NCBI GenBank assembly: GCA_012295275.1
Contig: CM022669.1
Location: 3,782,001 to 3,846,000, forward strand
DNA: 64,000 nucleotides
Direction of reading: 5' to 3'
DNA from: Chrysomallon squamiferum
Taxonomy: Eukaryota; Animalia; Mollusca
Position 1 is the stretch's first letter. Each line of letters begins with the position of its first letter. Positions 21,659 through 64,000 of the stretch are shown in pieces. A program made the position numbers and the translations under genes. Under the pieces are notes generated by a model. The model searched no databases. It was not told the DNA's origin and saw only the letters and a list, made by a program, of their open reading frames with translations.

Positions 21659-21792
21659 GAGAGAACGAGGTACGTCTGGTGTATGAACTGTTTGAAAAGA
21701 ACGGCTACAACCCGCTCATTCGTCCAGTTGAACACGTCAACGACACCCTTCACATTGACTTCAGTCTGCAGCTCAGCCAGATCATCAACGTG
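21659..21792 (+). CDS. nAChRbeta1: Gene A exon: N-terminal helix and beta1 strand
   Basis: CTACAG acceptor, GTTTGT donor; ENEVRLVYELFEKNGYNPLIRPVEHVNDTLHIDFSLQLSQIINV. Confidence 0.93.
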
Positions 21793-21827
21793 GTTTGTAT
21801 TTCACTTTTTAAATATTCCATCACCTC

Positions 21828-22053
21828 GTATACCTAGCTCACAGCACTGATACGTCCTTTGACACAGTATACCTAGCTCACAGCACTGATACGTCCTTTG
21901 ACACAGTATACCTAGCTCACAGCACTGATACGTCCTTTGACACAGTATACCTAGCTCACAGCACTGATACGTCCTTTGACACAGTATACCTAGCTCACAG
22001 CACTGATACGTCCTTTGACACAGTATACCTAGCTCACAGCACTGATACGTCCT
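21828..22053. repeat. Perfect 39-bp minisatellite, ~5.8 copies, in gene A intron
   Basis: Unit ATACCTAGCTCACAGCACTGATACGTCCTTTGACACAGT at 21830, 21869, 21908, 21947, 21986 and 22025 (partial). Confidence 0.95.
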
Positions 22054-22599
22054 CTGTGAACTTCAGAGAAAATCAGAGTCAAAGGTTTTTAACTCATCTG
22101 TAAAATCTCCTGTCCCTGTTCTTCGGCTTTCGACACATATAAAGTTAAAAGTGTCTTGGCTGTCTATAAAATCGTGTTTTTGCAGGTTTTTTTTTTATTT
22201 ATTCATGTTGCGATGTGGATTATGCTATTTATGACTATACTTTTAATGGTTATACCATTTTTTGGTCGTGGTATTTTTGTTATTTTTGAACAAAATACAT
22301 GTAAAAAATTATTCTGAACTTTTCTATTTTTAGGGTATATCACTCTTTTTGTCAGCTTAAATATCAGCATCATATTTATTATTGTTAAGCTGGAGCTAGT
22401 TATTTAAAAATAAATTCTGTTATCATTTTCATTTCAAATTTTGATGTTGTTTCTGCTGGGTATTTTTCTCTGTATTTTTTTTTTGTTTGTTTGTTTCTCT
22501 GCTATTTATATAAAAATAACAATCACTTAATTTTATTTTTTAGAAACTTATTTACTTATTTATTTTACATATTTATCTATATTTGCTTAGTTATTTACA

Positions 22600-22634
<35 letters not shown>

Positions 22635-22863
22635 CATCATGATGTGTAAATTTTAAATTTTTAAATTCTTTTCACAATATTTTATTAGGCGTAATTGTTT
22701 TAAATTCTTTCATCCTTTCTTTCCTCTCTTATTTGCTTTATCATTTCAGTCTGGTTAAATTTGCACGTTTATAATTATTTACTACTTACTATGAAAATCT
22801 GAAGTAATAAACAATAACTCCTTTTCTTTATTAAACTGTTCGGTGTCATGCTTTTATTTTTAG

Positions 22864-22908
22864 GACGAAAAAAATCAACAGATGAAAACAAACGTTTGGC
22901 TACAAATG
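22864..22908 (+). CDS. nAChRbeta1: Gene A 45-nt exon (loop D)
   Basis: TTTTAG acceptor, GTGAGG donor; DEKNQQMKTNVWLQM. Confidence 0.95.
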
Positions 22909-23553
22909 GTGAGGTTATCATAATGCTGCTTTTGTCTATTTTTAACAGTTTATCTATTTTGATAAAGTATGTTTATAAATAAGTGTTGTAATAATGTAAT
23001 GGACAAAAGTGACGCTTTTCCTTAAAATTAATGAATTAAGGCATAACATTGCTGTTGTTAAACGTGTATTTTATAATACATCATTTTTCAAATAGCTTGG
23101 GTTTTTCTCTAACAATAAATACGAAACATACAGAAATAACATATACATGTGGCTTTCTTGAGCCTTCACAAACCACGCGATGTGTATTAAATGAATACAC
23201 AGCCAGTGGGTTGTCGCTTAATCTTCGGATCATTCTAACAGCATCGCTCAAAGTGAAGTCGCTCAGAACGAGGCCGGCTGATCGTCTGACCAGTAAAATC
23301 AACAGACATTATCATTCATAAAAAAAAAAACAGATTTTTGCGTGACTGGATTTCTGAAACATGTGCACTTTAAAGATGTGCAGTAGAACAAAATAACCGA
23401 GTTAATCAAATAAATAGTATTCAGATAAATAATATATTATTATTATTGTTTTTTTTTTTTGTCCATACGTTTTAGAATGGAATTTAATTTGTTAATATCT
23501 GATAATTTTTTTTTTATCGCTCAAATCATTAAAATTTGAACAAAATGTTCAGA

Positions 23554-23594
<41 letters not shown>

Positions 23595-23641
23595 GTGTGT
23601 TGCGGAGGGACAAGTACAAATTGTTGTTATTTTATTTTCAG

Positions 23642-23751
23642 TACTGGTTTGACAAACAGTTGACTTGGGACCCGTCAGAATACGGAGACATCAGAGCAAT
23701 TCGAATTCGACCCGAATCTGTCTGGACGCCAGACATTGTACTGTTTAATAA
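23642..23751 (+). CDS. nAChRbeta1: Gene A 110-nt exon (loop A)
   Basis: TTTTCAG acceptor, GTACGT donor; [36 protein letters not shown](N). Confidence 0.96.
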
Positions 23752-24624
23752 GTACGTTGATTACAAAGTCAATTACAATTAATTCTGTCAAGGCGTATGT
23801 CTGTTGCTTTTTAAAAATAAGATATGCAGTTAATTTGAAGAATTACGTATATTGATTTGTTCGTTAAATGTATTCAGTTTGGTTACTTATTGTAGAATAT
23901 TTTAAAATTTTATTATTCAACATATAGATTGTATTTTATTTACATATTTTAGGGATTTGTTTTAGATTGTTTTATTTAGAAAAAATAAATTAAAAATGCG
24001 TGCTAAAACTGCCAGTTAGATTAATTTTAGTTAGACAAATGCCATAAAGCAGGGATTTTTTTTTGAGTTTTTAAAAAGTTTATTCGTATGAGAGCCAAAA
24101 TAAAACGTTTATTTCATAAGTTTTCACTTACATTTTTTAGCGTAAAAATAAAAACTTTATAATTATTATGGGTAAATGTGATTTGAATTTTTTCGTTCAT
24201 TATCTCATACAGAAGGGATATTATTTTAAAATAACTCCAAAATTCCACCTCCCTCCATTTTATAATGAAATCAACAAACAACAAACAAAATAATTATAAA
24301 TAAACGAAAAATTATTTGGTTAACGTTTATTTTGTAATAAATCTTGTTCTAGGTAACCCTTAATGTATGTATTTTTCCATTCGTTAATTATTCTAAAGCA
24401 AGTTTCTGTTGACTTAGAGGAAATTATAATTTATTATCATATATGTCATATCTTCTATAATTTGATTAAGCATAAGAGATTTTGAAATACTTCATGTCTT
24501 CTTTTCTTGAATAATTATTTTTGACATTATTTCATTCACTATCAGTCTGATCAGCACTAGAAATTTGTTAAAGATATAGGACTGAAATATTGAAATAATT
24601 TTGTTTGTAACGCATATTTTATAA

Positions 24625-24690
<66 letters not shown>

Positions 24691-24959
24691 CTCTATACAT
24701 ATCATAAATAACTATTTTGGAAAAGGAAACAGCATACTTACATTACGTTGATATTTGGTTCTATTTACAAATTTCGTTGTCAGTGACGTCAGAACAATAT
24801 AATGATGTCACGACAAATTACGACGAATTCATCCATCTGTTTATTTTTATTATTGTAACTATCTGTTTCTCTAATTACTGTCCATACATACATATATACA
24901 TACATATAGAGGTTACACATTGTTCAGAAAATATTTAAAACATTGTTTTGTACTTTCAG

Positions 24960-25947
24960 CGCTGATGGTAATTATGAAGTATCTTACAAGTCTAACTGTG
25001 TGATATATTTCAATGGCTACATCAACTGGATTCCTCCAGCAATATACAAAAGTTCTTGTTCGATAGACGTGCGTTACTTTCCTTTCGACGAACAGATTTG
25101 CGAAATGAAATTCGGCTCTTGGACGTTTCGAGGCAACCAGCTGTCGTTTGGATTCTTCAAGAACATCAGGAAGCTCGACATCACAGACTACTTGAAGAGC
25201 GGTTCCTGGGACGTCATCGACTGTCCCGGGCGCATAGTCAACGTCACCGACGAGGCCACGGGCGAGTACAGGAACCTCATCATCTTCACGCTGCAGATTC
25301 GCAGGAAGACCTTGTTCTACACCGTGAACCTCATCATCCCCTGTGTTCTCATTTCCTTTGTGAGTATCTGTGTGTTCGCTCTGCCGGCCGACGCGGGCGA
25401 GAAAATCACACTGTGTATCTCCATTCTCCTCTCCTTGGTTGTGTTCCTGCTGCTGATATCGAAGATACTTCCACCGTCTCTGACCATCCCGCTAATAGCC
25501 AAATACCTGTTGTTTACGTTCATTATGAATATCATTGCCATTCTTTCCACTGTTATCATCATTAATAGAAACTACAGAACGCCACGCACACATCGCATGC
25601 CTGATTGGGTGCGTATTGTTTTTCTCAAGCATCTTCCAAAATATCTCTTCATGAAGCGGCCAGACCACGATGAACGTTGGCAGAAAAAGACCTTCGCCCC
25701 TCCGCCGTCCTATCATACCACACCCGAAACACGAAGGGTTAATTTGAATATTCATGAGACAAACTTGTTGGAGTTAACAGAGATTCACCATCCTCACTGT
25801 AGACTGGGACCCAAGCTGGACCGTGCCAAGTCTACAGATTCCGATGTCGTGGATAAAACGTTCAAAATGACTCCAGAGTTGTATAGAGCCACAGAAGCTG
25901 TGAGATTTGTGTATCAGCATTTGAAAACAGAGGAAGAATATGATGAT
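24960..25947 (+). CDS. nAChRbeta1: Gene A large exon (Cys-loop, loops B/C, M1-M3, intracellular loop)
   Basis: CTTTCAG acceptor, GTAAGA donor; ADGNYEV...CSIDVRYFPFDEQIC...FGSWTF...[14 protein letters not shown]...KTEEEYDD. Confidence 0.97.
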
Positions 25948-26007
25948 GTAAGATTTATTTTTTTAAATACACACTAAAATGATGCATACGTGTGTTTGTT
26001 TATATCT

Positions 26008-26049
<42 letters not shown>

Positions 26050-26893
26050 ACGTGTATATTCTGTTTGTGAAGGTATTTAATCATGTATATATAGGGGTAT
26101 CTGTGTGTGTATATGTATGTATGCATTCGTGTGTATGTACTTATATATGTATTCAGGTAGATATGTAACTATGTATGTGTTTCTCTGTAAGGTGTGAAGA
26201 AATAATATATATGTGTGTATTAAATAGGTTTTTTTTTTTAAAATAATACTTCTATTTACATGTGTGACATGTATATGTCTATATGTGTAACTGTGAGAAT
26301 GGGAGTTTGTATATATTTTTTAAATCAATTTTTGAAGACATCTGTTGAATATGTTTGTGACTTTTTGTATGTGTATATTTGTGTGTATGTGTTTTATGGT
26401 ACTATGTTTGTATCTGTGTATGCTATACTTATGTGTGTCTTTCTTTGATAAATATGGTATTATTTTGTGATGGGTTCGTGTCGGCTGCGTATTGTTTTAA
26501 TGGTCTGGGGGTTGTTTGAATCTAACCATATGTGTTGTTTCTATGTGTGTACTACGTCAGTATATGTTGGTGTGACTGCATGTAAGATCTGAATACGAGT
26601 TTAGCTTGTGTATATGTGTTTACATGTGTGTGTATAGTGTTTTTATGTGTTAAGCGTTTCTCAATCTTTACGTGTGTTTTGTAGGTATGTTGCTGGTATA
26701 TTGTATGAATGAGTATGTGTGTTGACTTTATTTTTATGAATGCTATTTGTATGTGCACACGGTATACAAGTATGATGTGAATGTAATATCTGCTGTAAGA
26801 GAATATATGTGTAGTCTATATGTGTCATTCGAGGATGTTTGAATGTGTATCTGTCTGTCTTCTGTCTTTCTATCTATCTTATCTATCTATCTA

Positions 26894-26924
<31 letters not shown>

Positions 26925-28049
26925 GCCTGTCTGTCTATCTGTCTATATCTATATATATATCTCTATCTGTATATCTATCTACCTATCTATCTGTATATCT
27001 GTCTGTATATCTGTCTATCTGTCTATCAGTCTTTCTGTCTATATATCTGTGTGTGTGTCTGTGTGTGTGTGTTAGTATGTAATTGTATGTGAATTGGTAG
27101 CGATATTTATATTTGTGCACTGCTACTATTATCATTAGTATTAATTAACTGGCATAGTAAAAACAATCTAATCCGAATTTATTATGTTTATCATAAATGA
27201 AAATATGTTATTGCAACATAACTGTACAATAAATCTCTTTTATGTATTTGGATGCGTTTATAATTGATACTTTATATTAACTGGAAATATGGTAAGATAA
27301 TTCTAGAACATTTCACGTAATACTTATTAGATATTGATGGTTAGGTATATAATTGGCATAAATGAAAACATGCTACTGTAACATAATTTTATGCCACTTC
27401 ACATAGAGCTCTATTTCATATACTTGGATAGGTTTATTATTAATATTGTATATTAGCTGAAGAATCACAAGAAACGTATTATTCTAAATAATTTTATTAC
27501 ACTTGTTATTAGTTACTTTTGAATAGATGTACAGTTAGTATTACAATCTATCTTAAAATGTATTATAAATAAAATAATAATAATAACAATAATAATAATA
27601 ATAATAATAATAACGATAATATTTAAAATATAAATAAATAAATATAAAATGTATTACAGTAAAATAAATTTACAACATTTAATAAGTATTTTTCATCTTT
27701 GGCTGAGCATTACATATTACATGCCAATAACTTTGTTAAAGTATCATAACTCAACACTTTAGTTCATGATTTGGGATACTTATGTAATTACCATTATACA
27801 TTAATAACAAACATCTGTTTTTATGGCTCTGTAGTTTTACAACAGATTGCTTAATATTTATTTTTTTGTCTCTTAATACGTATAACTGCAATTAAATGAA
27901 AGTAACTACGTTACGGTAACATTACTTAACAACATTTCAGTTACTACGTATTTATTTAAGCTTACGTTACGGTAACGTAACTTGACAACATTTGAGTGAA
28001 CGCGGCTTTGATTCGTTGAAATAATAAAAAACAATTTTTGTTCGTTTAG

Positions 28050-28256
28050 GTGCTGGACGACTGGAGGTACTTGGCAAGAGTGCTGGATCGTCTCATGTTG
28101 TTGATATTTTTATCAGTCACGTGTGCTGGAACTGTTGGTATTTTGGTGAACGCTCCGTTTATTCTGGACTACGTAGACCAGGACAAAATCCTGGCACAAA
28201 TTCAGCAGGCGAATACACTGGCAAGAGAACTGTACAAAAAAGAGGAAAATTTGTGA
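28050..28256 (+). CDS. nAChRbeta1: Gene A last coding exon (M4, C-terminus)
   Basis: GTTTAG acceptor; VLDDWRYLARVLDRLMLLIFLSVTCAGTVGILVNAP...EENL, then TGA. Confidence 0.95.
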   Translation: MLDDWRYLARVLDRLMLLIFLSVTCAGTVGILVNAPFILDYVDQDKILAQIQQANTLARELYKKEENL

Positions 28257-40721: not shown

Positions 40722-40925
40722 ATGGGTGCCTTTCTCTACAGGGATATCGTGAAAAATGTCTTCTTTGTGTTTTTCGCGCTCACGCACGCGAACGACAACG
40801 CCAAACGTTTGTACGACGACTTGATGCGGCGCAGTGGTTACAACAAACTTATAAGACCTGTCGGAAACATCTCCGACAAACTTACTGTCAAACTGGGGAT
40901 GCGTCTGTCACAACTCATAGATATG
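40722..40925 (+). CDS. Gene B first coding exon (signal peptide and N-terminus)
   Basis: In-frame TAG at 40710 upstream of the ATG; [49 protein letters not shown]...LSQLIDM; GTATGT donor. Confidence 0.93.
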
Positions 40926-40952
40926 GTATGTATGTATGTTATTATGTGATTC

Positions 40953-41325
<373 letters not shown>

Positions 41326-41451
41326 CATCATCACATTAGCAGCAGCACTATCATAACAATATCACGTGTATTTAGGTGTTTATTAAACATTCTAGGAATA
41401 TATGTAATGCAATTATTATTATTATTATTATTGTTATTGTTGTTGTTGTTA

Positions 41452-41485
<34 letters not shown>

Positions 41486-42335
41486 CACTGGTTTTTTGTT
41501 GTTGTTTTTTGGTTTTGTTTTTTGTTTCTTCTTGTTTTGCTGTCTTCTTTTTCTTCTCCTTCTTATTTTTACTATTATATCATTATTTTATTGAAAATAA
41601 TGGAACGTTCTCTGATGTTATTTTCACGTTTATTAGATCTGAAAGAATTAATAATAATAATCAGTTTATAAAGAAGATAGGTTAATTAATCACAACAGCG
41701 TGATAGATACAGCTGTTAGTAACTGAGTGAATTTAACGACATTTTATTTACATTTTGAACTGCAGAGATAAGCATTAATCTCTGTTGTTATCTTTGAGGC
41801 AAATCTTTTTTTTTCTCATTTTCTTCTTGTTTTTCTTTTTCCTTCTCTTTTTTCTTTTTTTTTTTTTTTTTTTTTTCATTGTTCTTTTCTTGTTTTCTTT
41901 TTTCTTTTTTTTCCATAATTGTTTTTATTTGTGAAATAATTTAACTAGATTTGTGTAATTTCTGCGAATACCTACGTATGTACGTATGTACGCATCTTTA
42001 TTTATTTTAAAGTGTGTCTATGTATATTTATGTCTCTCTATATATAAATATGAAATTTTATATGTGCATATTTGCTAATATGTATATCTGTATGCAAACG
42101 CAGTTGTATAATATTGATTTGTATATATGTAAATCTATATATTTATATATATACTTATGTATTATATGCATGTTTGTACGGATGTGTGTGGATTTCTGAG
42201 TGCATGAATGTATGTGTGTCTATATTTGTATGCATTTATGTATGTATGTACGTTTGTATCTATATTTACATAATATTTATATGTATGAGAATGTGCTCTT
42301 GTGTATTTGTGTGTATATATATATATATAAATATT

Positions 42336-42366
<31 letters not shown>

Positions 42367-43674
42367 TTGTGTATTTGTATATGTGTTTGTGTATTTGTGT
42401 ATTTGTGTGGATATGTGTTTGTGTATTTATATACGTGCGTGCTCAACAACAACATTATTGTGAATTTGTTACACATATAATTACATATATGTGTGTACAA
42501 CTGGCTGGACAAATAGATGACGAATCCACGACTAGCTGAGTTAATAGACTTGCGATTGATGACTATATGAATAGACTTGCGATTGATGAATATATGAATA
42601 ACAATTGTATGTCGGCTTCTGTGTAAGTGTTCACATATTCTCCTTTTGCGTGCGTGCGTGTGCTTTTATTAACAAATTCATTTTGATGGATTAGGAAAAC
42701 TGTCAAATGTATAAGCTATTTATTGTTCATGTTAACGGATTTTTTTTTTCAGGAATATTTCCCTATGTATGTGTGTATGTATGTATTTATATATAGTTAT
42801 TTATTTACTTTAATTAAATTTCGTTGGTCTATTTATTTGTTTATTGAACTATTTATTTGTTTCTCTATATGCTTATTTCTTTATTGTTTTAATTATTTTT
42901 GTTTAATTTTACAGTTTGTTGATGTATTGCTCTCACTGATTTTATTTCTTTCCTAACCAATAATAATAATAATAATAATAAAGAAATTGTTTTTTTATAA
43001 TTGTTTTTATAATTATTTTTATCATTGTTATTGTTGTTGGTTTTCTTTATTCTACTTCATTCTTTATCTCCATCACACAAAGAATCAAATGCTTAGTTAT
43101 ATTTTGTTTATATATGATCGCTTACTGGGGATTTTTTTTGGTTGTTTTTTTCTTCTTCTTCTTCTTCTTCTTCTTCTTATGAAACAGCTTTGTAATAAAA
43201 ACTATTGACACAGGCGTTTGCTATAACATTTCGTTTTTACGTCCTAGGTCTTAGAATTAAACCGTTTTACAAAAATCAGAGTCAAAAATTGTAAAGCAAT
43301 TTATATCGACGATCCAAGCGTATAATGAGTTACAGATGGCTGCAGACGATTGTGTTCATCTGAAAACCCAATCTCGTTCGTGTTCCGCGCTTTATAAACA
43401 TTTATTTTTTCCTCTAATGGTGTGCTAAAAGAACTGAGTTGACTTATTCGTCCGAGGTCAACACGAGGAAGAAAAAAAAGTAAAAGAGAAAAGATTAAGA
43501 GGAAATAGCGGTCATCACGCATCCATTAAATGATGACATAATAGCAGTGATTAAATGACACAGGTTGACTCTTATTTTCTTCATTAAGACAGTCAAAACC
43601 TACGCATGCATGCACATGCTAACACACGATCGCACACGCACACACGCACTAGAGATACATATACAAACTCTCAT

Positions 43675-43827
<153 letters not shown>

Positions 43828-44502
43828 TGCGCGCTTACAGATACCACAAACACGCTGTTAGCCTCTCACATGCATTCCGTCAACTGTTATCATTTCGTGT
43901 ATGCAGTGGATGCCTATGAGACGAAGGGCTTAAAGCTAATACACTACAGAACACTGAACATAACCGCAAGCGCAAAACTATGCATTTTCCTCATACTAAT
44001 ACTTTACACCACCTCCATACTTAAAAAGAGTACATTAGAGACTCTTCATTTAATTTGCTCTCTCCCTCGCTTTGCACATTATCTGATATTATTCATTTCA
44101 TTAAGTAAAGAGCTCAAACTGGAATGATTAAAAAGAACCATCTTTGGTGACGAAAGCACTCTCAAAATCTTGCAGGCTGTTCAAACATAATTAAGTAGTT
44201 GGTATCCAATTTGACGTCTGCCGAAACACCAATGGTAGAGAAACGATTTCTTTTTTTTTTTTTTTTTTTTTAGAGGCAGTTTCGTACTTGCATTACGAAT
44301 AGGTTTTATCAGTTTTTGCTATTGTTGAAATCGTTGAAATTGTAATTTTATTATTTTTTGTATTTATAATTGCTTTTATTTTTATTTATTTTTATTCATT
44401 TATTTTTTATTTTAATAAAATTAAGACAATATTAAAAATGAACAAATTTAAAATAGCTATCAGTACTCTCTCTTTGACAGAGGGAAAGTACGGAGGAAAT
44501 AA

Positions 44503-44554
<52 letters not shown>

Positions 44555-45460
44555 CCCCACCTACCTGCATATCTGTATATCTACCTGCAAGTCCATCTAT
44601 CTACCTGTTCGTCTGATTACAATTTGTTGTTATTATTGTAGTTGTTTTTGCTTTAAAATGTAGGATTATGAGTAAATATAATGATAATAATAATAATAAA
44701 AGTACTATTATTAGTAGTAGCAGCAGCAGTAGTAGTACTATTACTTGTATCCCTCTTCTCATTACCACCATCATCACTATGATAGTTAACAAATTCAAAA
44801 AGACAACGACATTTTTTGCTTAACGTTTTTTTTTTTCTTTTTCTCGAACACTAGAAAGAGAAAAAAAATCAAAGTATTGTATTGGCATTTGTGATTGACT
44901 TCGCGAGTCGGTGCCTCACTCATTCAGAAGATATAACAAGTCCGCGTTGTCGAATCTGACGTCTCTTAGATATATTGTTCCTGTAAATCGTTTACGTGTC
45001 TCGTTTATTGCGAAGAGTTGTTATTGATTTCACTTACATCACAGCAGGAATAAAGGACAATGTACTTAGCGGTGTTCGCGTTCCCCCATCAATCAGACGT
45101 GCCTTAATAACAACAGATAACATTATTCTGCGTTGAGTAAACATCCTTTACAGTCCTCGGTGTCCGTGCCGATGTTTGTGTTTGTTTGTTCTGATTTTTC
45201 TTTTCATTTGTGTGTGTGTGTGTGTGGTTCGAAGCTTTACATATGATTTAATTATTTAAAATAAGTATTTAATATATATATATAATTGTCGTTTTTTGTT
45301 TATTTTAAAAAATTTTTATTTATTTATTTATTTATTCATTCAATTCATTCATTCATTTATTCATTCATTTGTTTGTTTGTTTGTTTGTTCCTGTAGTTAC
45401 TGTACTTATTTTTGATGTCACATATTTGCTCTTTTCGTCTTCATTTGTTGAAGCTAACGA

Positions 45461-45500
<40 letters not shown>

Positions 45501-45672
45501 AGTAGTAGTAGTAGTAGTAGTACTAGTAGTTGTAGTAGTTGTAGTAGTAATAATAGTCGTGGTAATATTGGTTATTCTTTTTAGTACTACAATAATAACT
45601 GTAGAAGTAGCAATAATGTTTCATTTCAGACAAAATGAAAATGAGTCCTGTTAAGTTTTTTTAGTAATGAAA

Positions 45673-45714
<42 letters not shown>

Positions 45715-48381
45715 TATATATATATATATATGTTTTCACGTGATTTGTTACAATACATGTATTAGCTGAAACCAGATCACGATTCCTTATGACAATATCA
45801 AAAAGTCTTCAACAGAGCAGAAAGAGATTTCTTGTTTAAATGAAGCAACGTGTCAAATATACCACAAGACGTGTGTTTGTCTCATTCTGTTTCTTTGAGC
45901 AATTTCCAAGAAAAAATTAGAATAATACAAACTGCTATAGGTCACGCAGTAACTAGTTCAAATGTTGTTTGTAGAGTAAAGCTGACATTTATCAGTCTGC
46001 TAAGAATTTCCTGTTTTTCCTTTAGCTTTTAAAAACATTTTAATTTCTCTGTGAAATAGAACATCATGAATCCATGCCAGAAAATAACACTCAGTATTAA
46101 TCTAACATTGTTGTCGACTTTATTGTTGTTAAAGGTTAGTTTCTAAAACAAATAAAATAATAATTTAGAAATATTTAATTCGTATGTTTGCACATTATAC
46201 TGTATTTCTTTCGAAACTTCTAAGATCTTTTTATCAAAACTTCACAACGATATTATCTTAGTGTTTGTCATAAAGGATATCTTTTTTTTCATTTTTTCTT
46301 TTCTTTTTTTCTCTTTTTATAAGTTATTGTCTTTTTTATTTCCTATTTCTTCTGTTTTCTCAAATTATTTCCCTCTTATTCTGTACTTGTAACACACAAA
46401 ACATCTGCTGTTTAAACAAAAACAATAATTTTGATAAAGTGCCGTTGCTCTTATTGCGTTATTCGAAATATCAGTGACAGGCTGCCGCCAGGTAGATTCT
46501 GCGGCGCCAATTAGCGTGTTTGTTTTTTCTTGTAACAGCCACTGTCGACTGTATCGGGTTTCATTTTTTTAATAAGCTAAAAATATTTTATATTTATCAG
46601 TCATTCATGTGATACGTTTTTTTTTTTTGTTGCTGGTTTGCTGTATGCAGGTTGTATGAAAGACGTTTTAATATCAGTAATAAATGTATGATTAAGAATA
46701 AATATGGGATTATTTGCAAAAATGTTTAATATAGTTTGGGGTTTTTTTCGATAAAATTTGATAAAAATAAATGATTATTAAGTAATGAAATATTTTTGTG
46801 TAGTATTTAAGTAACTATTGCTTTGTGATAAAGAATGTAAGTCAACGTGTTTTGAATGAATGTATGTTTGTATATGTGTGTGTGTATGTGTTTGTGTGTG
46901 TGTTTTGTATGTGTGTACACACAGATATATCTGTGTTAACCATTCATACAAAATGTGTTTACTTAAGGTCTATATATATATTCACTACAGACAAGATTCG
47001 TTGCATCGCCAACATACTAATTTGCTGATCATAACACAGTATAAAGCATGCCTGTTATGGACTTAGAGTTGAGTAAACTAGGTCCTTTGTCTGAGGTCGT
47101 GTTTCAGGCTTACAAAGCAATATGTTAGGGCAATTTTGCACTCCTCATATTATGGTCAGGAGCCAGCTCTGGGAAGTAAATTTGGTTTCTATTCGGTTTT
47201 AAGACAAATACGTTATCCACGGTGCCACCAAGACTGGTCTAAACCAGGTTCATCTCTATTTTTATAGTTTCTATGGGGGCTAACGTCCATACCCGCACTT
47301 AAATAATTAACCGTTGTAATTTGTTATCTATTGAAATAGTTTGATTTGCACAGGCTACAAATACCGTGCATTGAGGAGATCTCACTCGTAAAGGTCTGTA
47401 GGTGAGCTGCTGTATCTTTGTACGGTTTAATCAGGTTTCCTTCTGGTCCTCTCATGAATAAGAGAGTTAATCACAACGGAATAATGACGCATCGTAAAAA
47501 GAAATGACTGCTCAACGTTAGCCGTTCGATTCTACAAAAGTTCGCATCTTAATTTCCATATTTGCTATCGGCGATCCATTGACCCAAGACATATTGAAAG
47601 GAAATTCATAGAAATAATGCAAAGAAAGATGCATAAAGAAAGGAACTTTATTATAGAAAATTCCATTTATATGTCATTGGTAGCTACATTACTGCCGAGT
47701 TAACCACTCATCCGCTCTTAAGAGAGAGACTAGGAGATTTTGTTTTTTGTGTGGATTTTTTTTGTGGGTCTTTTCTTTCCACTCTTTATATTCTGAAACA
47801 TCCATTACCGATTGCAAATGATCACTTAGACTGTCTTCTGGTTTGAAAACGGAAGCTAAAAGACATATTTGATTTCTTGAAGTCCCGCTAACAGCACTTA
47901 AGAATCGTTACAAATGTAAGATTTACCTCAGCAGTGTCTGACTGCGAGCTACTTTTTAAATGTTGTATTTCTTTTACCGGTTAAAATCATATCCATTGAC
48001 TGAATAATAATAATAATAAGAAGAAGAAGAAGAAGAAGAAACTTATTAATAATCTCCAATATAAATATCTGAAAGTATAATTATTATCTAAAGATAGCTA
48101 CAATTCATTCATTCATTCATTCATCTAGTTATTCATTCATTTTTTGATTCATTTGTTATTTTCCTTCCTATATTTGTTTTCTACTATTTCTCCACTGTCT
48201 TCATCGTCATCTTCATCGTCATCTTCATGTTGTTGTTTTGGTTCTTATTGCTATTGTTGCTACTTTTGCTATACTAATCATAATCATCGTTGTCGTCATC
48301 ATCATCATCATCATCATTATTACCACTATCTCTACTATTAGTATTGTTACTATATTACTGCAACTACTACTACTACTACTA

Positions 48382-48438
<57 letters not shown>

Positions 48439-49180
48439 TTAGCTCTACTACCACTACCAACTAATAATCTATATCATAAATGGTATGCATACATTTTCTC
48501 TATGCAAGCCCTGTAATTGCAACAAATGTACTGGATTTTGATTTCACTTCTTTCCGACACATTAACAAAACACAAACCCTGGTAATTGCCTATCTCCAAG
48601 CGTTTCCTATGTCTGAAGTTGATTGCGGACAAGCCGTTTGAGCTAATGATATTTCCTTGTATGTGTCAGCCCACACGATCACTCGGTGACGAATATTAAG
48701 TTAATTCATGTGTGGAATATGGCTACTTATCGCATGTTCTGCAGATGTTTTCTGAATCGTCAGACAAAACTGATTTGGTAATTCACTAATCTAATTACTT
48801 TCACCGATTATTTTATTAAGAACGATCAGCTTTTACACACCCAGAAAAAAAAATCCAGTAAATAATGGTCGATTTGTATGTGTTTGTTTATCTGTGTGTG
48901 AATGTATGCTTTATATGCGAGTGTGTTTGTGTGTTGTGTGTGTATTTATATGAATATGAATATGTACATTTTATGTATATGTATATCTATTTATGTTTGT
49001 GTGTATATGTGTCTGTGTATTACATATAATGTTTATGTATATATACGTTAATATAAACACATTTATTTATGCTTTGTATTTTACGTCAACGAAACTCTCT
49101 CACAACTCTATATTGTTTAATTTAAACATGATGCTACTTTTGCTATATTTGGTAACAGATACCTCTGTTTCTGTTTTCAG

Positions 49181-49225
49181 GATGAAAAGAATCAAGTGAT
49201 GACTACAAACGTCTGGCTTAGACAG
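49181..49225 (+). CDS. Gene B 45-nt exon (loop D)
   Basis: TTTTCAG acceptor, GTACAT donor; DEKNQVMTTNVWLRQ. Confidence 0.95.
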
Positions 49226-50488
49226 GTACATTTAGCTTTTATTTCTTCTTTTTCTCATTGCAACATCAAAGCACTCTAGATATTGAATTCTCACAATTAA
49301 CATTATTAAGCGGAATCTCCCCGTTTCGGTTAATAAAATTTGGTTTTCTTTAGAAAATAGCAGCAACGACAGAATTAACGTTCAAGGGATGTCTGGTGTC
49401 TAGCATTTGACCGGTATTAAGGAGACTATCGCTTAACCAATTTGCAGTTCGCTAAAAGGAAAACTGTATATTTGTATTTTGCGTCTGTCTGACTCCGAAG
49501 CTAAATATACTCAGAAGTGTCATTTCAGAACATTTCCTTTTTTCATTAAATGACTCTATTAAAGAGTCTTTCTTCTGCTGTTACAGGACAATGTATCAAG
49601 AACGCCTTAATGATGATAACGATGATAATGATGTTAGTCATATCAGTGGGTATAGTTCCATTCGTAATAATGCTAGAAAAAAATAAAAAAGTAATTAACT
49701 ACAACAAAAACAACAGTAACAAAACAATAACAACAACAATAATAATAATAGTAATATAAAATAAAGAACAACAACAACAACAACGACAGCGACAATAATA
49801 ATAATAAAAAATACTACTAGTAATAATCATAAACTGATGTTACAGAAAAAGGAGTTGTAGAGGTGACGGCAAATGTTGTTGTTGTAGCAGTAAATGTAAC
49901 AGTAGCAGAAATACAAATATATTGAGAGTAGTGATAGTACTTATAGCGTCAGTAATAGTATGGACAACCAGTAATAGAACTGAACAGTAGCAGTAGTTGT
50001 AGTAGTAGTAGAAGCAGTAAAAACAGATGTAGTAATAGAGCTAGAAGTAGTAGTTGATTTAGTAGTAATTGTAGGACAAGTATTAGTATTACTAGTATAG
50101 TAGTAATACTATAGTATTTGTTGTTGTTCTAATATTTTTACAGTTATAGTAATATACATTACTACCACTACTAGTAATACGTGTACTACTACTACTACCA
50201 TACTTCTATTACTACTACATTACTACTACTAGTATTACTACTACATTACCACACTACTACTCCTGCTGCTACTACTGGTCCTGTTCCACTATTACTACTG
50301 CTACTGCTAATACTAATATTACGATAACTAGTACTACTATTACCATAGAAACTAGTTGCTAATAATAATACTAGCCTTGCAGTTCATCAACTATTACTAC
50401 TCTCAGTATATGTATTTCTGCTACTATTCCATTTATTCCTACAACGTCTGTATTTGCCAGTGCACTACAGCATGGTTTTATCTTGCAG

Positions 50489-50598
50489 GAATGGTGTGAC
50501 AGAAAGCTGATTTGGACACCAGATGAATATGGCGGTGTCGATAAACTCTACGTACCGTCAGACCAAATCTGGCTTCCAGATATAGTTCTATATAATAA
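50489..50598 (+). CDS. Gene B 110-nt exon (loop A)
   Basis: CTTGCAG acceptor, GTAAGT donor; [36 protein letters not shown](N). Confidence 0.96.
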
Positions 50599-50903
50599 GT
50601 AAGTAACAATAACAACAACAACAACAACAACAAAAGAAATGTATTAAATACTATATAAGCTTCGTGAAGATCCTTCTGTAAAGAAAATTAATATGAGAGA
50701 TTTTCTGTAAAACAAAAATAATGAATGTAATCTAAATCTGAATATACATATTATAACGTCTTCTTTTTACTTTTTTTATTAATTAATTAATTATAATTAT
50801 ATTTATTTATTTATTTATTTAGTTAGTTAGTCAGTTAGTTTTTATTTATTTAGTTTTTTGCTATAAATTCAATAGCTAGGTAATTTATCTGTTACATTTT
50901 CAG

Positions 50904-51915
50904 TGCTGACGGTAACTACGAGGTCACACTAATGACTAAAGCTACAATTCACTACAATGGCAAAGTTGTTTGGGAACCTCCAGCCATATACAAAAGCTCT
51001 TGCCCCATCGACGTCGAGTTTTTCCCGTTTGACATTCAGAACTGCAAGCTAAAGTTTGGGACGTGGACGTACGACGGAGACCAGGTTGACCTCGTTCACA
51101 TCTGTGCACAAGGAAGTGAGCCGAACGTCGTGGTGGAAAGCGGAGTTGATCTCAGAGACTTTTACCCCAGCGTGGAGTGGGACATTTTGGAAGTGTCTGC
51201 CACGAAGAACACTCGCAGATACCCGTGCTGCACCGAGCCGTATCCTGACATAACGTTTGAGGTGACAATGCGCAGACGTACTCTGTTCCACACGGTTAAC
51301 CTCATCATTCCCTGCGTGGCCATCTCGTTCCTCACGATTCTTGTCTTCTACCTCCCGTCCGACTCGGGCGAGAAAACCACTCTGTGTATATCCATTCTCC
51401 TCACCCTGACGTTGTTCTTTTTGCTGCTGGCTGAAATCATTCCACCGACGTCCATAGTCGTACCGCTGATCGGAAAGTACCTGCTCTTCACGCTGATACT
51501 AGTCACATTGTCCATCATCGTAACCGTCATTGTTCTCAACGTCCATTTTCGCTCCCCAGCTACGCACAGCATGGCCCCGTGGGTAAGGAGAGTATTTCTG
51601 AACATTCTGCCCAGGCTGTTGCTGATGCGGAGGCCTCATCATGACTACGACTGCTCGTCCAAGACGATGGTGAAGTCGTGTAACGGTCTGGAAGTCCAGA
51701 ATGACAGTCGAGACCCGCGAAGCTTCGAAGGAAGGTCTTTCCTGGAGCTGTCGTCGTCGGAATATCAACGAACGTTACAGGAGGAGGTGTTAGTGGTTCA
51801 GCGTGAGCTGTCTCCAACGAATCGCAGGAAGTTCTATTCGAAGGAAGTGAAGGACGCGCTGGAAGCGGTTAACTTCATTGCAGAACACATGAAGCTGGAG
51901 GATCAAACGTCCGCG
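50904..51915 (+). CDS. Gene B large exon (Cys-loop to MA helix)
   Basis: TTTTCAG acceptor, GTATGT donor; [13 protein letters not shown]...[15 protein letters not shown]...[10 protein letters not shown]...[14 protein letters not shown]...EDQTSA. Confidence 0.97.
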
Positions 51916-52762
51916 GTATGTACTTGTCTGACAAAGTGTGTACGACCATACTGCCTTCTTAGTACTTTTTATTATTATTATTATATATATCCCTGAGATT
52001 ATAAATGGAAGATGCAACTTTACAAAGTTTTTAATGTGACAACAACAACAACAACAACAATAAAACAGTGAAAAAAAAAAAAAATGAAAAAAGCAAAAAA
52101 AAACCCCAAAACCCCCAAACAAACAATAAAAAAATAAAAAAATAAATATGCAATAAAAATAAAAACGACAACAAACAAACAAAAATGATATATAAGATGA
52201 TTATATTTTCCATTCAGGTTTTTTTAGACTGTTTTAATCTATGAAATAATCTAAGTAATAATCTATGAAATTCTAAAGTAATAAAACACCGTAAATGACC
52301 ATTTTCATCTTGATCCATTATTACATTCTTGATCCACATTCTTACGATCTTGTTGTGCATTTGTTATGCTTCACTAATATCATAGGGCTGGCATTAAGTA
52401 ATAATATAAAAATCATTTAAAAATATACGAAATTCTCAAAGATTGTATGTTCACACCATCATACTACCATAGGTATTTGATTAAGATAGAAAATCTTCTT
52501 TAATTAATTTTGAAGATGCAAAACATCAAAACGTCTATTAAATACATATATATATTAATGTTCATAATAAATGTATATAGATAAATAACAGTGTAGTCTG
52601 CAAATCTCTTAACTTACCTGCAAAATGATCCTGTCATTTAGACATCCAGTTATACCGACCTGCATTGTTATATCTGTCATGACGTCATCATATTATTCCA
52701 ACGTAGCGGATGACGTAAAATGTAAACAAACAGAAGACATTAACGGGGTCGAACGATATTAT

Positions 52763-52821
<59 letters not shown>

Positions 52822-52910
52822 CATAATAATCATAATAATAATATCGTTAGCTTCATCATTTTAAATTTAAATTATTTCAAATTCTCGGATGTGTGTATTT
52901 ATAATTTCAG

Positions 52911-53096
52911 ATTGAAGAAGATTGGAAATACGTTGCCATGGTGCTTGACCGTATGTTTTTGTGGATCTTTACAACGGCATGTATTGTAGGTACATTTGGA
53001 ATTATCCTTCAGGCGCCCTCACTTTACGATCAACGAGAACCTCTGACGTCATCAGATTTTGCGGACAGTTGTTACCAAGCGTATGCATCCAGATAA
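52911..53096 (+). CDS. Gene B last coding exon (M4)
   Basis: TTTCAG acceptor; [61 protein letters not shown], then TAA. This frame is missing from the ORF track. Confidence 0.96.
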
Positions 53097-54071: not shown

Positions 54072-55001
54072 TATCGAGACCTGGATGCACTGCAACATGC
54101 TGAAGCTGAGAAGACCGTTGTGATGATTTTCACTTCTAAATAATAACTCAAAGAACGCTGACACCATACCAGTTACTGTGGGTGATGCCTTCCTAACTTC
54201 AGTACCATACATCTGAAATCTTTGCTGTAAGTTTGATTCTACAATGACTATGGAACATCAAGTGAATGTAATATATCGGTCTGGCTATGCTCAGCTATGG
54301 AAGATCGGTAGAATTTAGTAGTATCTCACCAGAGATGCCATAAAAACACTGGTGAATGGACTTGTGACGTCACGACTGGACAATTGCCATGGTCTACTGC
54401 ACAGGTTGCTCAACAAACTGCATCGGGTCCAGAATACTGCAGCACGCATTGTGACCAGGTCATGATCACAGACATATGTCGCCAGTACTGAATGCGTTCC
54501 TCTGGTTGCGTGTCCACTGTAGGATAAAGTACAAGCTCATGGTCCATACATACACAACACCTTGAACGATCGTTCCCCAGAGTACATCAAGGACATGCTG
54601 GAAGCGTAAAGACCAAGCCGGACTCTGCGATCACAGAATTCATTAAGATTAGTAACACCAAAAATAAGAACAACTACAAACAGCCAGAGATGTTTCAGTT
54701 ATTGCTGCACCAACTTTGTGGAACTCACTCCCAAGTAACATCAAGGAGGCTGAAACATCAACTGCATTGAAAACTACTAAAGACCCATTTCTTTCCCAAA
54801 TCTTTGTTAATATATAATTATGTTTTATTTTTCCAATTTTAATTACCTTGAAATATGACATTTTTTGTTTTTTTTCACCATTAAGCTTACATTTATTTTA
54901 ATATGTTTATGTCCATGTCTTTTGTATTTTAGTTTATTAATTTACGCTGTAAAACATCATTGAACTTACTTTTTATGGAAAAAATTCTATATAAATATGG
55001 C

Positions 55002-61054: not shown

Positions 61055-61500
61055 TTCAGTGAATCGTTTAGTCAAGTGTATATTTAAACAATGCAGTTGT
61101 TCACCAGACCTGTGTATATTTAAAATAAACAGCTGTTTATTAGCTTAACTGAAACAGTTATTCACCAGCCGCTTCTCTATTTAAAAGACGCAGTTTGTTC
61201 ACCAGCGATTTTTCTATTTAAAAGAAATAGTTGTTCACCATGGGCATCTCTGTTTAGACGAAGCAGATATTCACCAGATGTCTATTTAAAAGAAAGAGTT
61301 GTTCATCAATACTGTCTATTTATATGAAGCAGATGTTCGCCAGAGAAGTGTCTACTTAAACGAAGATGTTCACCAGACGAATGTCTATTTAAACGAAACG
61401 GGCGTTCACCAGACAAGTGTCTATTTCAACAAAGCCGTTGTTCACAAGACTCATGTCTGTTTACATGAAGGAACTGTTCAGGGTCATTTGTCTGTTTAAA
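61055..61500. repeat. Degenerate ~35-37-bp tandem repeat directly downstream of the gene C stop codon
   Basis: Recurring GTTCACCAG...GTCTATTTAAA.GAA.CAG motif, about 11-12 copies. Confidence 0.85.
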
Positions 61501-61522: not shown

Positions 61523-61708
61523 TCACCTTGCTGAGTACGCAGTGTAACAGCTGTCCTTGAAGTCAACAGCAGTGAGCGGTTGTTTGTCGTCGTAGAGAGT
61601 GGGAGCCTGCAGAATGATTCCAAACGTGCCCACGACACAAGCCGTGGTGAAGATCCATAGAAACAGTCTATCTAAAACCATGGCAACATATTTCCAGTCT
61701 TCTTCAAT
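61523..61708 (-). CDS. Gene C last coding exon (M4)
   Basis: TTTCAG acceptor; [61 protein letters not shown], then TGA. Same length (186 nt) as the gene B last exon. Confidence 0.96.
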
Positions 61709-62078: not shown

Positions 62079-63072
62079 TGATTGTGTCAAATCTTCAAAC
62101 TTCATGTGTTCGGCTATAAAGCTGATGGCCTCTAAAGCATCCTGTACTTCTTTGCAGAACTTTGAAGGTGTGGGCGTGGCCATTTCCTGCTCCACGTGCA
62201 ACAGTTCACACCTGAGCGTGGAATTATAGTCTGGAAGATCCGTAACGTTTATATTTCTCATGTCCTGCCCCCCGTCGCGCATTTTCATACCGTTACAGTT
62301 TCTCATGGGAATCTTATAGTTGAGTTCTGAGGGTTGGTGCGGCCGGCGCATCACCAACAACTTTGGAAAAACGGTGAGAAACACCCGCCTCACCCATGAC
62401 GACATGCAGTGGGTAGTGGGAGACCTGTAGTGGACGTTCAGCACGATGACGGTGACGATGATGGACAGCGTGACGAGGATGATGGTGAAGAGGAGGTATT
62501 TGCCGATGAGAGGGACCACGATCGACGTGGGTGGAATTATCTCCGTCAGCAGCAGCAGGAAGATGATGAGCGTGAGGAGGATGGAGATGCACAGCGTGGT
62601 TTTCTCGCCCGAGTCGGACGGGAGGTAGAAGACGAGGATGGTGATGAACGAGATGGCCACGCAGGGAATGATCAGGTTCACCGTGTGGAACAGCGTCTTC
62701 CTCCTGATGGTCACCATGAAGGTTATGTCGGGAAACGTCGAGTTGTCCAGAGGGTCGATTCTCGTGTTCTTCTGGGCATTCACTTCCAGGATATCCCATT
62801 CCAGACTCGGGTAGAAGTCTCGCAGGTCGACTCCGCTGCGAATGTAGACGTTAGGCTCGTTTGTTGGAGCGCACGTGTGGACGAGGTCCACCTGGTCGCC
62901 CTCGTACGTCCACGAGCCGAACTTCAGCTGACACGTCTGAACGTCAAAGGGGAAATATTCCACGTCGATTGGACAAGAACTTTTGAAGATGGCGGGCGGT
63001 TCCCACACAACCAGCCCCGTGTAGTGTAAAGTCGCTTTTGTTGTCAAGGTTACCTCGAAGTTGCCGTCAGCA
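62079..63072 (-). CDS. Gene C large exon: alpha-derived nAChR subunit lacking the loop-C vicinal cysteines (5' exons beyond the window end)
   Basis: ATTTCAG acceptor, GTCAGT donor; [13 protein letters not shown]...[15 protein letters not shown]...[14 protein letters not shown]...[14 protein letters not shown]...EDLTQS. Open frame; close paralog of gene B. Confidence 0.96.
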
Positions 63073-63638: not shown

Positions 63639-64000
63639 ATCGTGTCACAGAATAAACTCCTAACAAACACTTGTTTTTGTAATCATTTCAGTTCTTTATT
63701 GTCTTTCACGATGTTTTACTTACTTGTTGAAAAGAACAATATCGTGTGACAGAATAAACTCCTAACAAACACTTGTTTTTGTAATTATTACGATTCTTTA
63801 CTGTCTTTCACGGTGTTTTACTTACTTGTTGAAAAGAACAATATCGTGTGACAGAATAAACTCCTAACAAACACTTGTTTTTGTGATCATTACGACTCTT
63901 TACTGTCTTTCACGGTGTTTTACTTACTTGTTGAAAAGAACAATATCGTGTGACAGAATAAACTCCTAACAAACACTTGTTTTTGTGATCATTACGACTG
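63639..64000. repeat. 102-bp tandem repeat (at least 3.5 copies, runs off the window) containing a duplicated exon end and splice donor of gene C
   Basis: ATCGTGT.ACAGAATAAACTCC at 63639, 63741, 63843 and 63945. The minus strand of each full unit reads GAT ATT GTT CTT TTC AAC AA|GTAAGT. Confidence 0.93.

Follow-up and report, generated by a model that had tools for sequence, protein, structure and literature searches.

A canonical nicotinic receptor alpha gene and its probably accessory, alpha-derived sister with a rewritten loop C in Chrysomallon squamiferum

The conversion of alpha5 and beta3 to accessory subunits is more than 500 million years old and hence hard to study. Both descend from an alpha-like ancestor (PMC6354393) and line the pore of nicotinic acetylcholine receptors (nAChRs) without forming the usual binding site (PMC7744819). 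That alpha genes can become non-alpha had been noted in the first-pass annotation of the DNA studied here, and the insect case it named is in print: Dbeta2 of Drosophila is an alpha-type gene turned non-alpha and is orthologous to alpha8 of other insects (PMC2064938). The same conversion was described for polychaete Alpo3-like receptors (PMC10338036), 13 of the 33 alpha subunits of the oyster keep all principal residues (PMC6896357), and a phylum-wide molluscan survey reported repeated binding-site substitutions (PMC13174522). Cephalopod chemotactile receptors and Alvinella Alpo4 are nAChR relatives without the acetylcholine signature residues (PMC13174522, PMC10338036). Here, we describe a gene of Chrysomallon squamiferum, gene C, that is an independent instance of this known, recurrent event and apparently undescribed; titles and abstract openings yielded no published account of the paralog, in a search that did not cover supplements and most subscription journals. 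At a probability of roughly 0.6, we read gene C as a non-alpha or accessory subunit of convergent origin, which would tune gating.

The window, i.e., the whole stretch of 64,000 nucleotides that was analysed (contig CM022669.1, positions 3,782,001 to 3,846,000), holds three nAChR subunit genes, two of which, B on the forward and C on the reverse strand, stand tail to tail. Gene A (21659-28256, forward strand) is a beta-like 1 (non-alpha) subunit with an open spliced frame; its first exon with the signal peptide was not located within the 64-kb window. Among the matches listed, those closest to gene A (76-77% identity) bear the names beta-like 1 or non-alpha subunit, and by this likeness it is the beta-like 1 ortholog. 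No Gigantopelta ortholog of gene A (24961-25947) occurred among the 120 matches listed, though those of B and C were found; the cause may be a limit on length or a gene missing from the annotation. Gene B (40722-53096, forward strand) is a canonical type-E alpha subunit with a complete frame of 518 residues in five exons (40722-40925, 49181-49225, 50489-50598, 50904-51915 and 52911-53096) joined by GT-AG introns, and all of Tyr93, Trp149, Tyr190, Cys192-Cys193 and Tyr198 are present. Gene B has also changed at conserved sites of its own (51060-51420): a Thr beside the loop B Trp, found in all B orthologs, and the Leu at M2 13′ described below. Residue numbers for genes B and C follow Torpedo and were set by homology. 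Between the two genes lies a degraded stretch (54280-54760) with a putative resemblance to the terminal part of a LINE reverse transcriptase.

Gene C runs on the reverse strand from 63072 to 61523, with its 5′ exons past the end of the window. Its long exon (62079-63072) is an open frame of 331 codons between an AG acceptor and a GT donor and encodes loop E, the Cys-loop, loops B, F and C, M1-M3 and the intracellular loop, and the last exon (61523-61708) carries M4 and is open to its TGA stop. A 36-bp tandem repeat (61151-61445, 8.4 copies, 69% matches) follows just 3′ of this stop and perhaps lies within the 3′ untranslated region. The ligand-binding domain, Cys-loop and four transmembrane helices are the features of a Cys-loop nAChR subunit, and the GEK motif kept before M2 (62541-62609 for both) predicts a cation-type channel. 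In the segment with Cys-loop and loop B (62901-62975), Lys145 and Trp149 are kept. Thus, the reading of Cys-loop, loop B Trp, GEK, M1-M4 and splice sites as intact holds for the long and last exons.

The change lies in loop C (62733-62756). Codon alignment to gene B, which is gapless here, bears out the substitutions first read from the sequence: Asp190 (62756-62754), Leu192 (62750-62748), Asp193 (62747-62745) and Phe198 (62735-62733) stand for Tyr, Cys, Cys and Tyr, and an N-S-T sequon starts at 62744. Tyr to Asp at 190 takes one base (TAC in gene B, GAC in gene C). The adjacent cysteines 192-193 by which alpha subunits are defined are absent, with Leu-Asp in C. squamiferum and Leu-Gly in the Gigantopelta ortholog described below, and the alpha aromatic box (Tyr93, Trp149, Tyr190, Tyr198) is incomplete: Trp149 is kept, 190 is Asp, 198 is Phe in C. 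squamiferum or Tyr in the ortholog, and 93 is Tyr or Phe depending on splicing in the ortholog. Elsewhere gene C has stayed close to gene B, with 74% identity in the extracellular part tested and 93% in M1-M3, and on its complementary face one Val to Leu is all that sets loops D, E and F apart from those of gene B.

The ortholog comes from Gigantopelta aegis. The best of 5728 matches to gene C is its XP_041369292 (85% identity), a RefSeq entry named alpha-L1-like by automatic annotation only; the next matches, at 69%, are B orthologs. XP_041369292 is encoded on the same 54.6-Mb sequence as the Gigantopelta B ortholog and is a direct C ortholog: it has Asp190 with the following Pro, Leu192, Ser-Thr and the altered M2 residues in common with gene C and likewise lacks both cysteines. 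The two C sequences are identical at 112 of 125 positions of the extracellular part and 88 of 89 of M1-M3 (B-to-B, 121 of 125 and 87 of 89). A metagenome contig scan with 80 loci gave no close C ortholog, near full-length matches reaching at most 66% identity, and a short-fragment search with the loop B-C region returned seven matches of 48-63% identity and no further C ortholog.

We called a change fixed if both C sequences, from C. squamiferum and G. aegis, differ from a residue that no fewer than 85% of the 23 canonical molluscan rows have in common. The 17 fixed positions so defined, which rest on these two C sequences, comprise four in loop C, one in loop B (Asp152 to Glu, in both C orthologs) and five in M2, the remainder being scattered; besides Asp152Glu, two more fixed changes lie near the pocket, after loop A. 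The M2 changes are at 10′ (also in gene B), 12′, 13′, 15′ and 19′, and both orthologs have Ile, Ile, Leu and Thr at the last four, against 22-23 of the 23 canonical rows. A contrast of Ile-Ile with Thr-Leu at 12′-13′ between genes C and B had been pointed out before; the letters are right, but Leu13′ is a change of gene B in this species only, as Gigantopelta B has Val there.

XP_041369292 also bears on what loop C may do. It has Gly-Lys for Asp-Asn, lacks the sequon and keeps Tyr198. As judged from the two sequences, gene C of C. squamiferum is thus alone in having the acidic tip, the sequon and Phe198. This weakens the proposal of the first-pass annotation that an acidic loop C retuned the receptor. 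A wider form of that proposal, in which the principal face is retuned to another ligand or modulator (choline, betaine or an amine, for example), either in gene C by itself or at its interface with B (C/B) or A (C/A), can draw on what both species retain: a loop C of alpha length, Asp190, Leu192, Ser-Thr, an aromatic residue at 198, Trp149, Lys145 and Asp200, together with the fixed changes near the pocket. The conserved Asp190-Pro-Leu192-x-x-Ser-Thr is more than pure loss requires. Furthermore, non-canonical sites have been reported at alpha5 and beta3 interfaces (PMC6018187), and some lophotrochozoan receptors have other ligands or are orphans (PMC10338036). We nevertheless consider such retuning unlikely, given that the tip, sequon and Phe198 are not common to the ortholog, the complementary face is the same as in gene B, and the extracellular identity to gene B is still high. 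The analogy to cephalopod chemotactile receptors, drawn earlier for this locus, found no direct support at that identity. Those receptors form an expanded, intronless clade (PMC13174522 section 3.4) and, like Alpo4, belong to distant clades with remodelled pockets, whereas gene C is a single, intron-bearing, recent and little-diverged duplicate inside type E.

The preferred reading, an accessory subunit, presupposes a working gene. Gene C is spliced, transcribed and under purifying selection. Among four public runs, contigs on gene C were found in two of the three RNA runs and in one run of unrecorded kind. A contig of RNA run X2 spans 61533-61708 and 62079-62186 contiguously, which is the exact predicted junction of the last two exons, and the long exon is partly covered by RNA contigs of runs X1 and X2. 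Seven coding differences could be assigned to gene C contigs, and every one is synonymous, for which mutation classes give a chance of about 1.4e-4; this count leaves out four differences at 62634-62645, in a contig with a loose end matching gene B, and one ambiguous, silent difference at 62610. Between genes B and C, dN/dS is 0.115 over 392 codons, with a dS of 1.85 that is saturated in parts. None of the four runs covers loop C codons 192-198, and one RNA contig stops at the D190 codon; the loop is independently supported by the Gigantopelta ortholog.

By contrast, a duplicate decaying in C. squamiferum, disabled upstream or mis-spliced, would fit the low depth of the RNA contigs, the lack of gene C cover in RNA run X4, which is in itself no proof of absence, and the position of the 5′ exons outside the window. 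It would also fit an intron repeat. As assembled, a 102-bp tandem repeat (63639-63997, reverse strand; 3.5 copies, 96% matches) includes in each unit the final 20 bases from a loop A exon together with its donor site, so that the motif DIVLFN occurs three times (63947-63928, 63845-63826 and 63743-63724), each time with the donor present, the exon sequence in front absent and a reading that runs into a stop. Use of a copied donor would yield a premature stop. Yet the exact splicing of the last intron, the seven silent variants out of seven, the full-length ortholog and an end branch as short as that of the ortholog (0.089 vs 0.093 in the 37-row tree described below) make decay very improbable. 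The exact junction, the silent variants and the 85% identical ortholog together show that gene C is not a pseudogene, and the initial impression that it was no obvious one stands on the exons inside the window, the RNA contigs and the ortholog.

DIVLFN had first been noticed as a duplicated exon end; copies do exist, but as three pieces of the 102-bp repeat, the source exon lying beyond 64000. From the repeat period, we infer that this loop A exon of gene C ends at about 64030 or further; C. squamiferum would have Phe at loop A of gene C. Most likely, if not certainly, the repeat copies a Phe93 exon; the Ile of the repeat unit, which agrees with the Tyr93 exon of Gigantopelta, counts against this source. 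Such a Phe93 had been taken as part of the dismantling of the binding face, a claim that does not survive comparison. The Gigantopelta C gene has two isoforms whose sole difference is the loop A exon, with Phe93 or Tyr93, and both forms occur in seven of nine canonical alpha groups (Aplysia, three abalone sets, Ostrea and two octopuses); of the remaining two, Patella has two exons, both with Tyr, and Littorina showed only Phe. The nine are those parsed of 13 canonical groups with intact Tyr190-Cys-Cys, Biomphalaria and three scallops being left out. Mutually exclusive loop A exons (50489-50598 in gene B; P0016/P0258, P0006/P0271, P0029/P0280) are thus kept in gastropods, bivalves and cephalopods, and Phe93 is an old alternative exon and no loss specific to gene C. 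In the window, no second loop A exon was found in the introns of gene B, which has only the Tyr93 exon here and in the one Gigantopelta record; the Phe93 form seems to have been lost from gene B.

The Tyr93 exon of the ortholog also leads to another function for gene C, that of a subunit which, mainly in its Tyr93 form, binds acetylcholine at low affinity, extending the concentration range through a third, weak site. With Tyr93, Trp149 and Tyr198, the ortholog keeps three of the four principal aromatics. However, Tyr190 and both cysteines are gone, Tyr190 changes reduce gating of the muscle receptor (PMC2217228), and in C. squamiferum Tyr198 has become Phe as well, and we regard a weak acetylcholine site as quite improbable.

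The accessory reading further implies an origin from an alpha subunit, which is what the phylogeny gave. The main tree (37 rows chosen from the matches; LG+G4, no mixture model) was computed without gene A, vertebrate sequences or loop C columns. P0004 and the B and C genes of the two species fall into a single clade (100/98) nested in the gastropod clade (99/98), which identifies gene C as the product of a lineage-restricted duplication of a type-E alpha subunit, in the lineage leading to C. squamiferum and Gigantopelta. The B/C clade had a support of 96 in a quick tree of 59 rows in which gene A forms a very long branch. In the 37-row tree the stem of C is longer than that of B (0.33 vs 0.22), and relative-rate tests found C faster against five of five outgroups, significantly so against two. 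Thus, the earlier proposal of an independently evolved, alpha-derived paralog is borne out, and the concern that gene C might be a beta subunit conserved across molluscs is answered by the two trees: gene C groups with B, not with beta-like 1. The parent group was identified as type E from the Aplysia cluster, whose members are named alpha1, alpha2 and type E, alpha1 and alpha2 being two forms of one gene (Aplysia alpha1/alpha2, AGI03861; LnAChR E). Type E and gene C share the long exon, the loop F insertion and the mutually exclusive Tyr93/Phe93 exons; unlike gene C, type E has lost neither Tyr190 nor the cysteine pair, appears as a single gene in the other gastropods sampled and lacks the M2 changes.

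On the sampled tree the cysteine pair changes state six times: in C, heterodonts, P0077, Bradybaena, one Lingula paralog and a crustacean beta2-like gene. P0077 groups with pteriomorph bivalves, the Bradybaena member (P0019) is possibly an annotation or sequence error, and the Lingula one (P0070) forms a paralog pair with a canonical copy. The crustacean beta2-like genes (Eriocheir, Hyalella) have a full-length loop C without cysteines as in gene C; they and Dbeta2 belong to a separate arthropod lineage, whereas gene C adjoins a retained canonical sister copy. In the heterodonts Dreissena, Mya, Mercenaria and Mactra (P0034, P0038, P0052, P0060), a type E subunit has lost its cysteines independently; its loop C is shortened, its M2 reads Asn-Phe at 12′-13′ and, where parsed, it has only the Phe93 exon. 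Mya has several near-identical copies, and no canonical copy from these species was among the 120 matches listed. Their change at the same M2 positions as in gene C, with different residues, could be read as a sign that C belongs to an old pan-molluscan non-alpha lineage, orthologous to these subunits or to beta. We give this almost no credence: a clade of C and the heterodonts was rejected (AU test, p = 0.0015), C nests with B, and the beta ortholog is gene A.

Likeness to the vertebrate accessory subunits, with gene C compared from its sequence, is strongest for beta3. Human beta3 (PDB 8a5u chain B) lacks the cysteine pair, carries Asp at 190 along with Phe93, Trp149 and Tyr198, and is the top PDB match for the extracellular part of gene C, and ninth for gene B. 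It leads alpha6 by 2 bits, and for the full Gigantopelta C domain alpha4 ranked above beta3; as Tyr and Asp codons can differ by one base, chance may account for the match to beta3. We assume that alpha5, too, has Asp190, of which the literature search found no published statement. Gene C resembles beta3 in Asp190, the missing cysteine pair, the kept Trp149, a principal face without Tyr190 and its descent from an alpha subunit. In contrast, Thr12′ and Val13′, both altered in gene C, are still present in human alpha5 and beta3 (table, PMC2217228); gene C is of separate origin, and its ortholog can retain Tyr93 via splicing; moreover, accessory behaviour is proven for alpha5 and beta3. Gene C is no ortholog of CHRNA5 or CHRNB3, as it arose within gastropods (in the tree without vertebrate sequences). 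Nonetheless, Asp190 and cysteine loss as in beta3, the duplication tree and the constraint favour the accessory subunit over the retuned receptor, the two alternatives with which the analysis had started.

The arrangement of the genes extends the comparison. The tail-to-tail layout of B and C recalls CHRNA3 and CHRNA5. In the likeness to the beta4-alpha3-alpha5 cluster we also count what we take to be the orientation of CHRNB4. CHRNA3 and CHRNA5 themselves were described as lying tail to tail (PMC4769750). In 22 of the 24 lophotrochozoan assemblies named in both match lists, the sequences that carry the beta and the alpha gene are equally long, a count made by hand with equal length as a stand-in for identity; Lymnaea and Candidula are the misses, and several linked cases are on scaffolds below 7 Mb. 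In Batillaria and Patella caerulea the two genes have consecutive locus tags. The apparent linkage (21659-53096 in the window) spans molluscs, annelids and a nemertean, and the beta-alpha pair appears to be old, gene C having been added beside it; as a pointer to co-assembly it is only suggestive. It is tempting to see here the vertebrate beta4-alpha3-alpha5 design rebuilt independently, with an inverted alpha copy beside an old beta-alpha pair, the beta3 signature of Asp190, no cysteine pair and optional Phe93, an inherited weak-binding splice form, the Asp190 loop as a non-canonical site for a second ligand or modulator and a parallel conversion in heterodonts, but as a whole this scenario is doubtful.

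For an accessory gene C, we propose that the subunit co-assembles with the alpha (B) and beta (A) subunits and would form no acetylcholine site of its own. Acetylcholine would bind at the principal faces of B, while gene C would occupy the fifth position or supply a complementary face, as its loops D, E and F match those of B. Tyr190 and Tyr93 have a part in recognising the agonist and in gating (PMC4006026, PMC2217228), changes at both tyrosines reduce muscle-receptor gating, and changes at 12′ alter it (PMC2217228); the M2 changes at 12′, 13′, 15′ and 19′ and the divergent intracellular loop of gene C may alter gating, desensitisation or trafficking of the cation channel. The ancestor presumably made both Tyr93 and Phe93 splice forms, of which B would have kept Tyr93 only and C may have taken over the weak-binding role.

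The general phenomenon is already known, and what this locus adds is a clean test case and no new principle. Automatic alpha-like names and Phe93 in loop A are poor guides to function in molluscs. If true, the heterodont parallel at the same M2 positions would provide repeated natural experiments on the origin of accessory subunits. Genes B and C are still close (74% and 93% identity, with 17 fixed changes, one of them also in B), and therefore the steps from a binding to a helper subunit could be mapped by few residue swaps.
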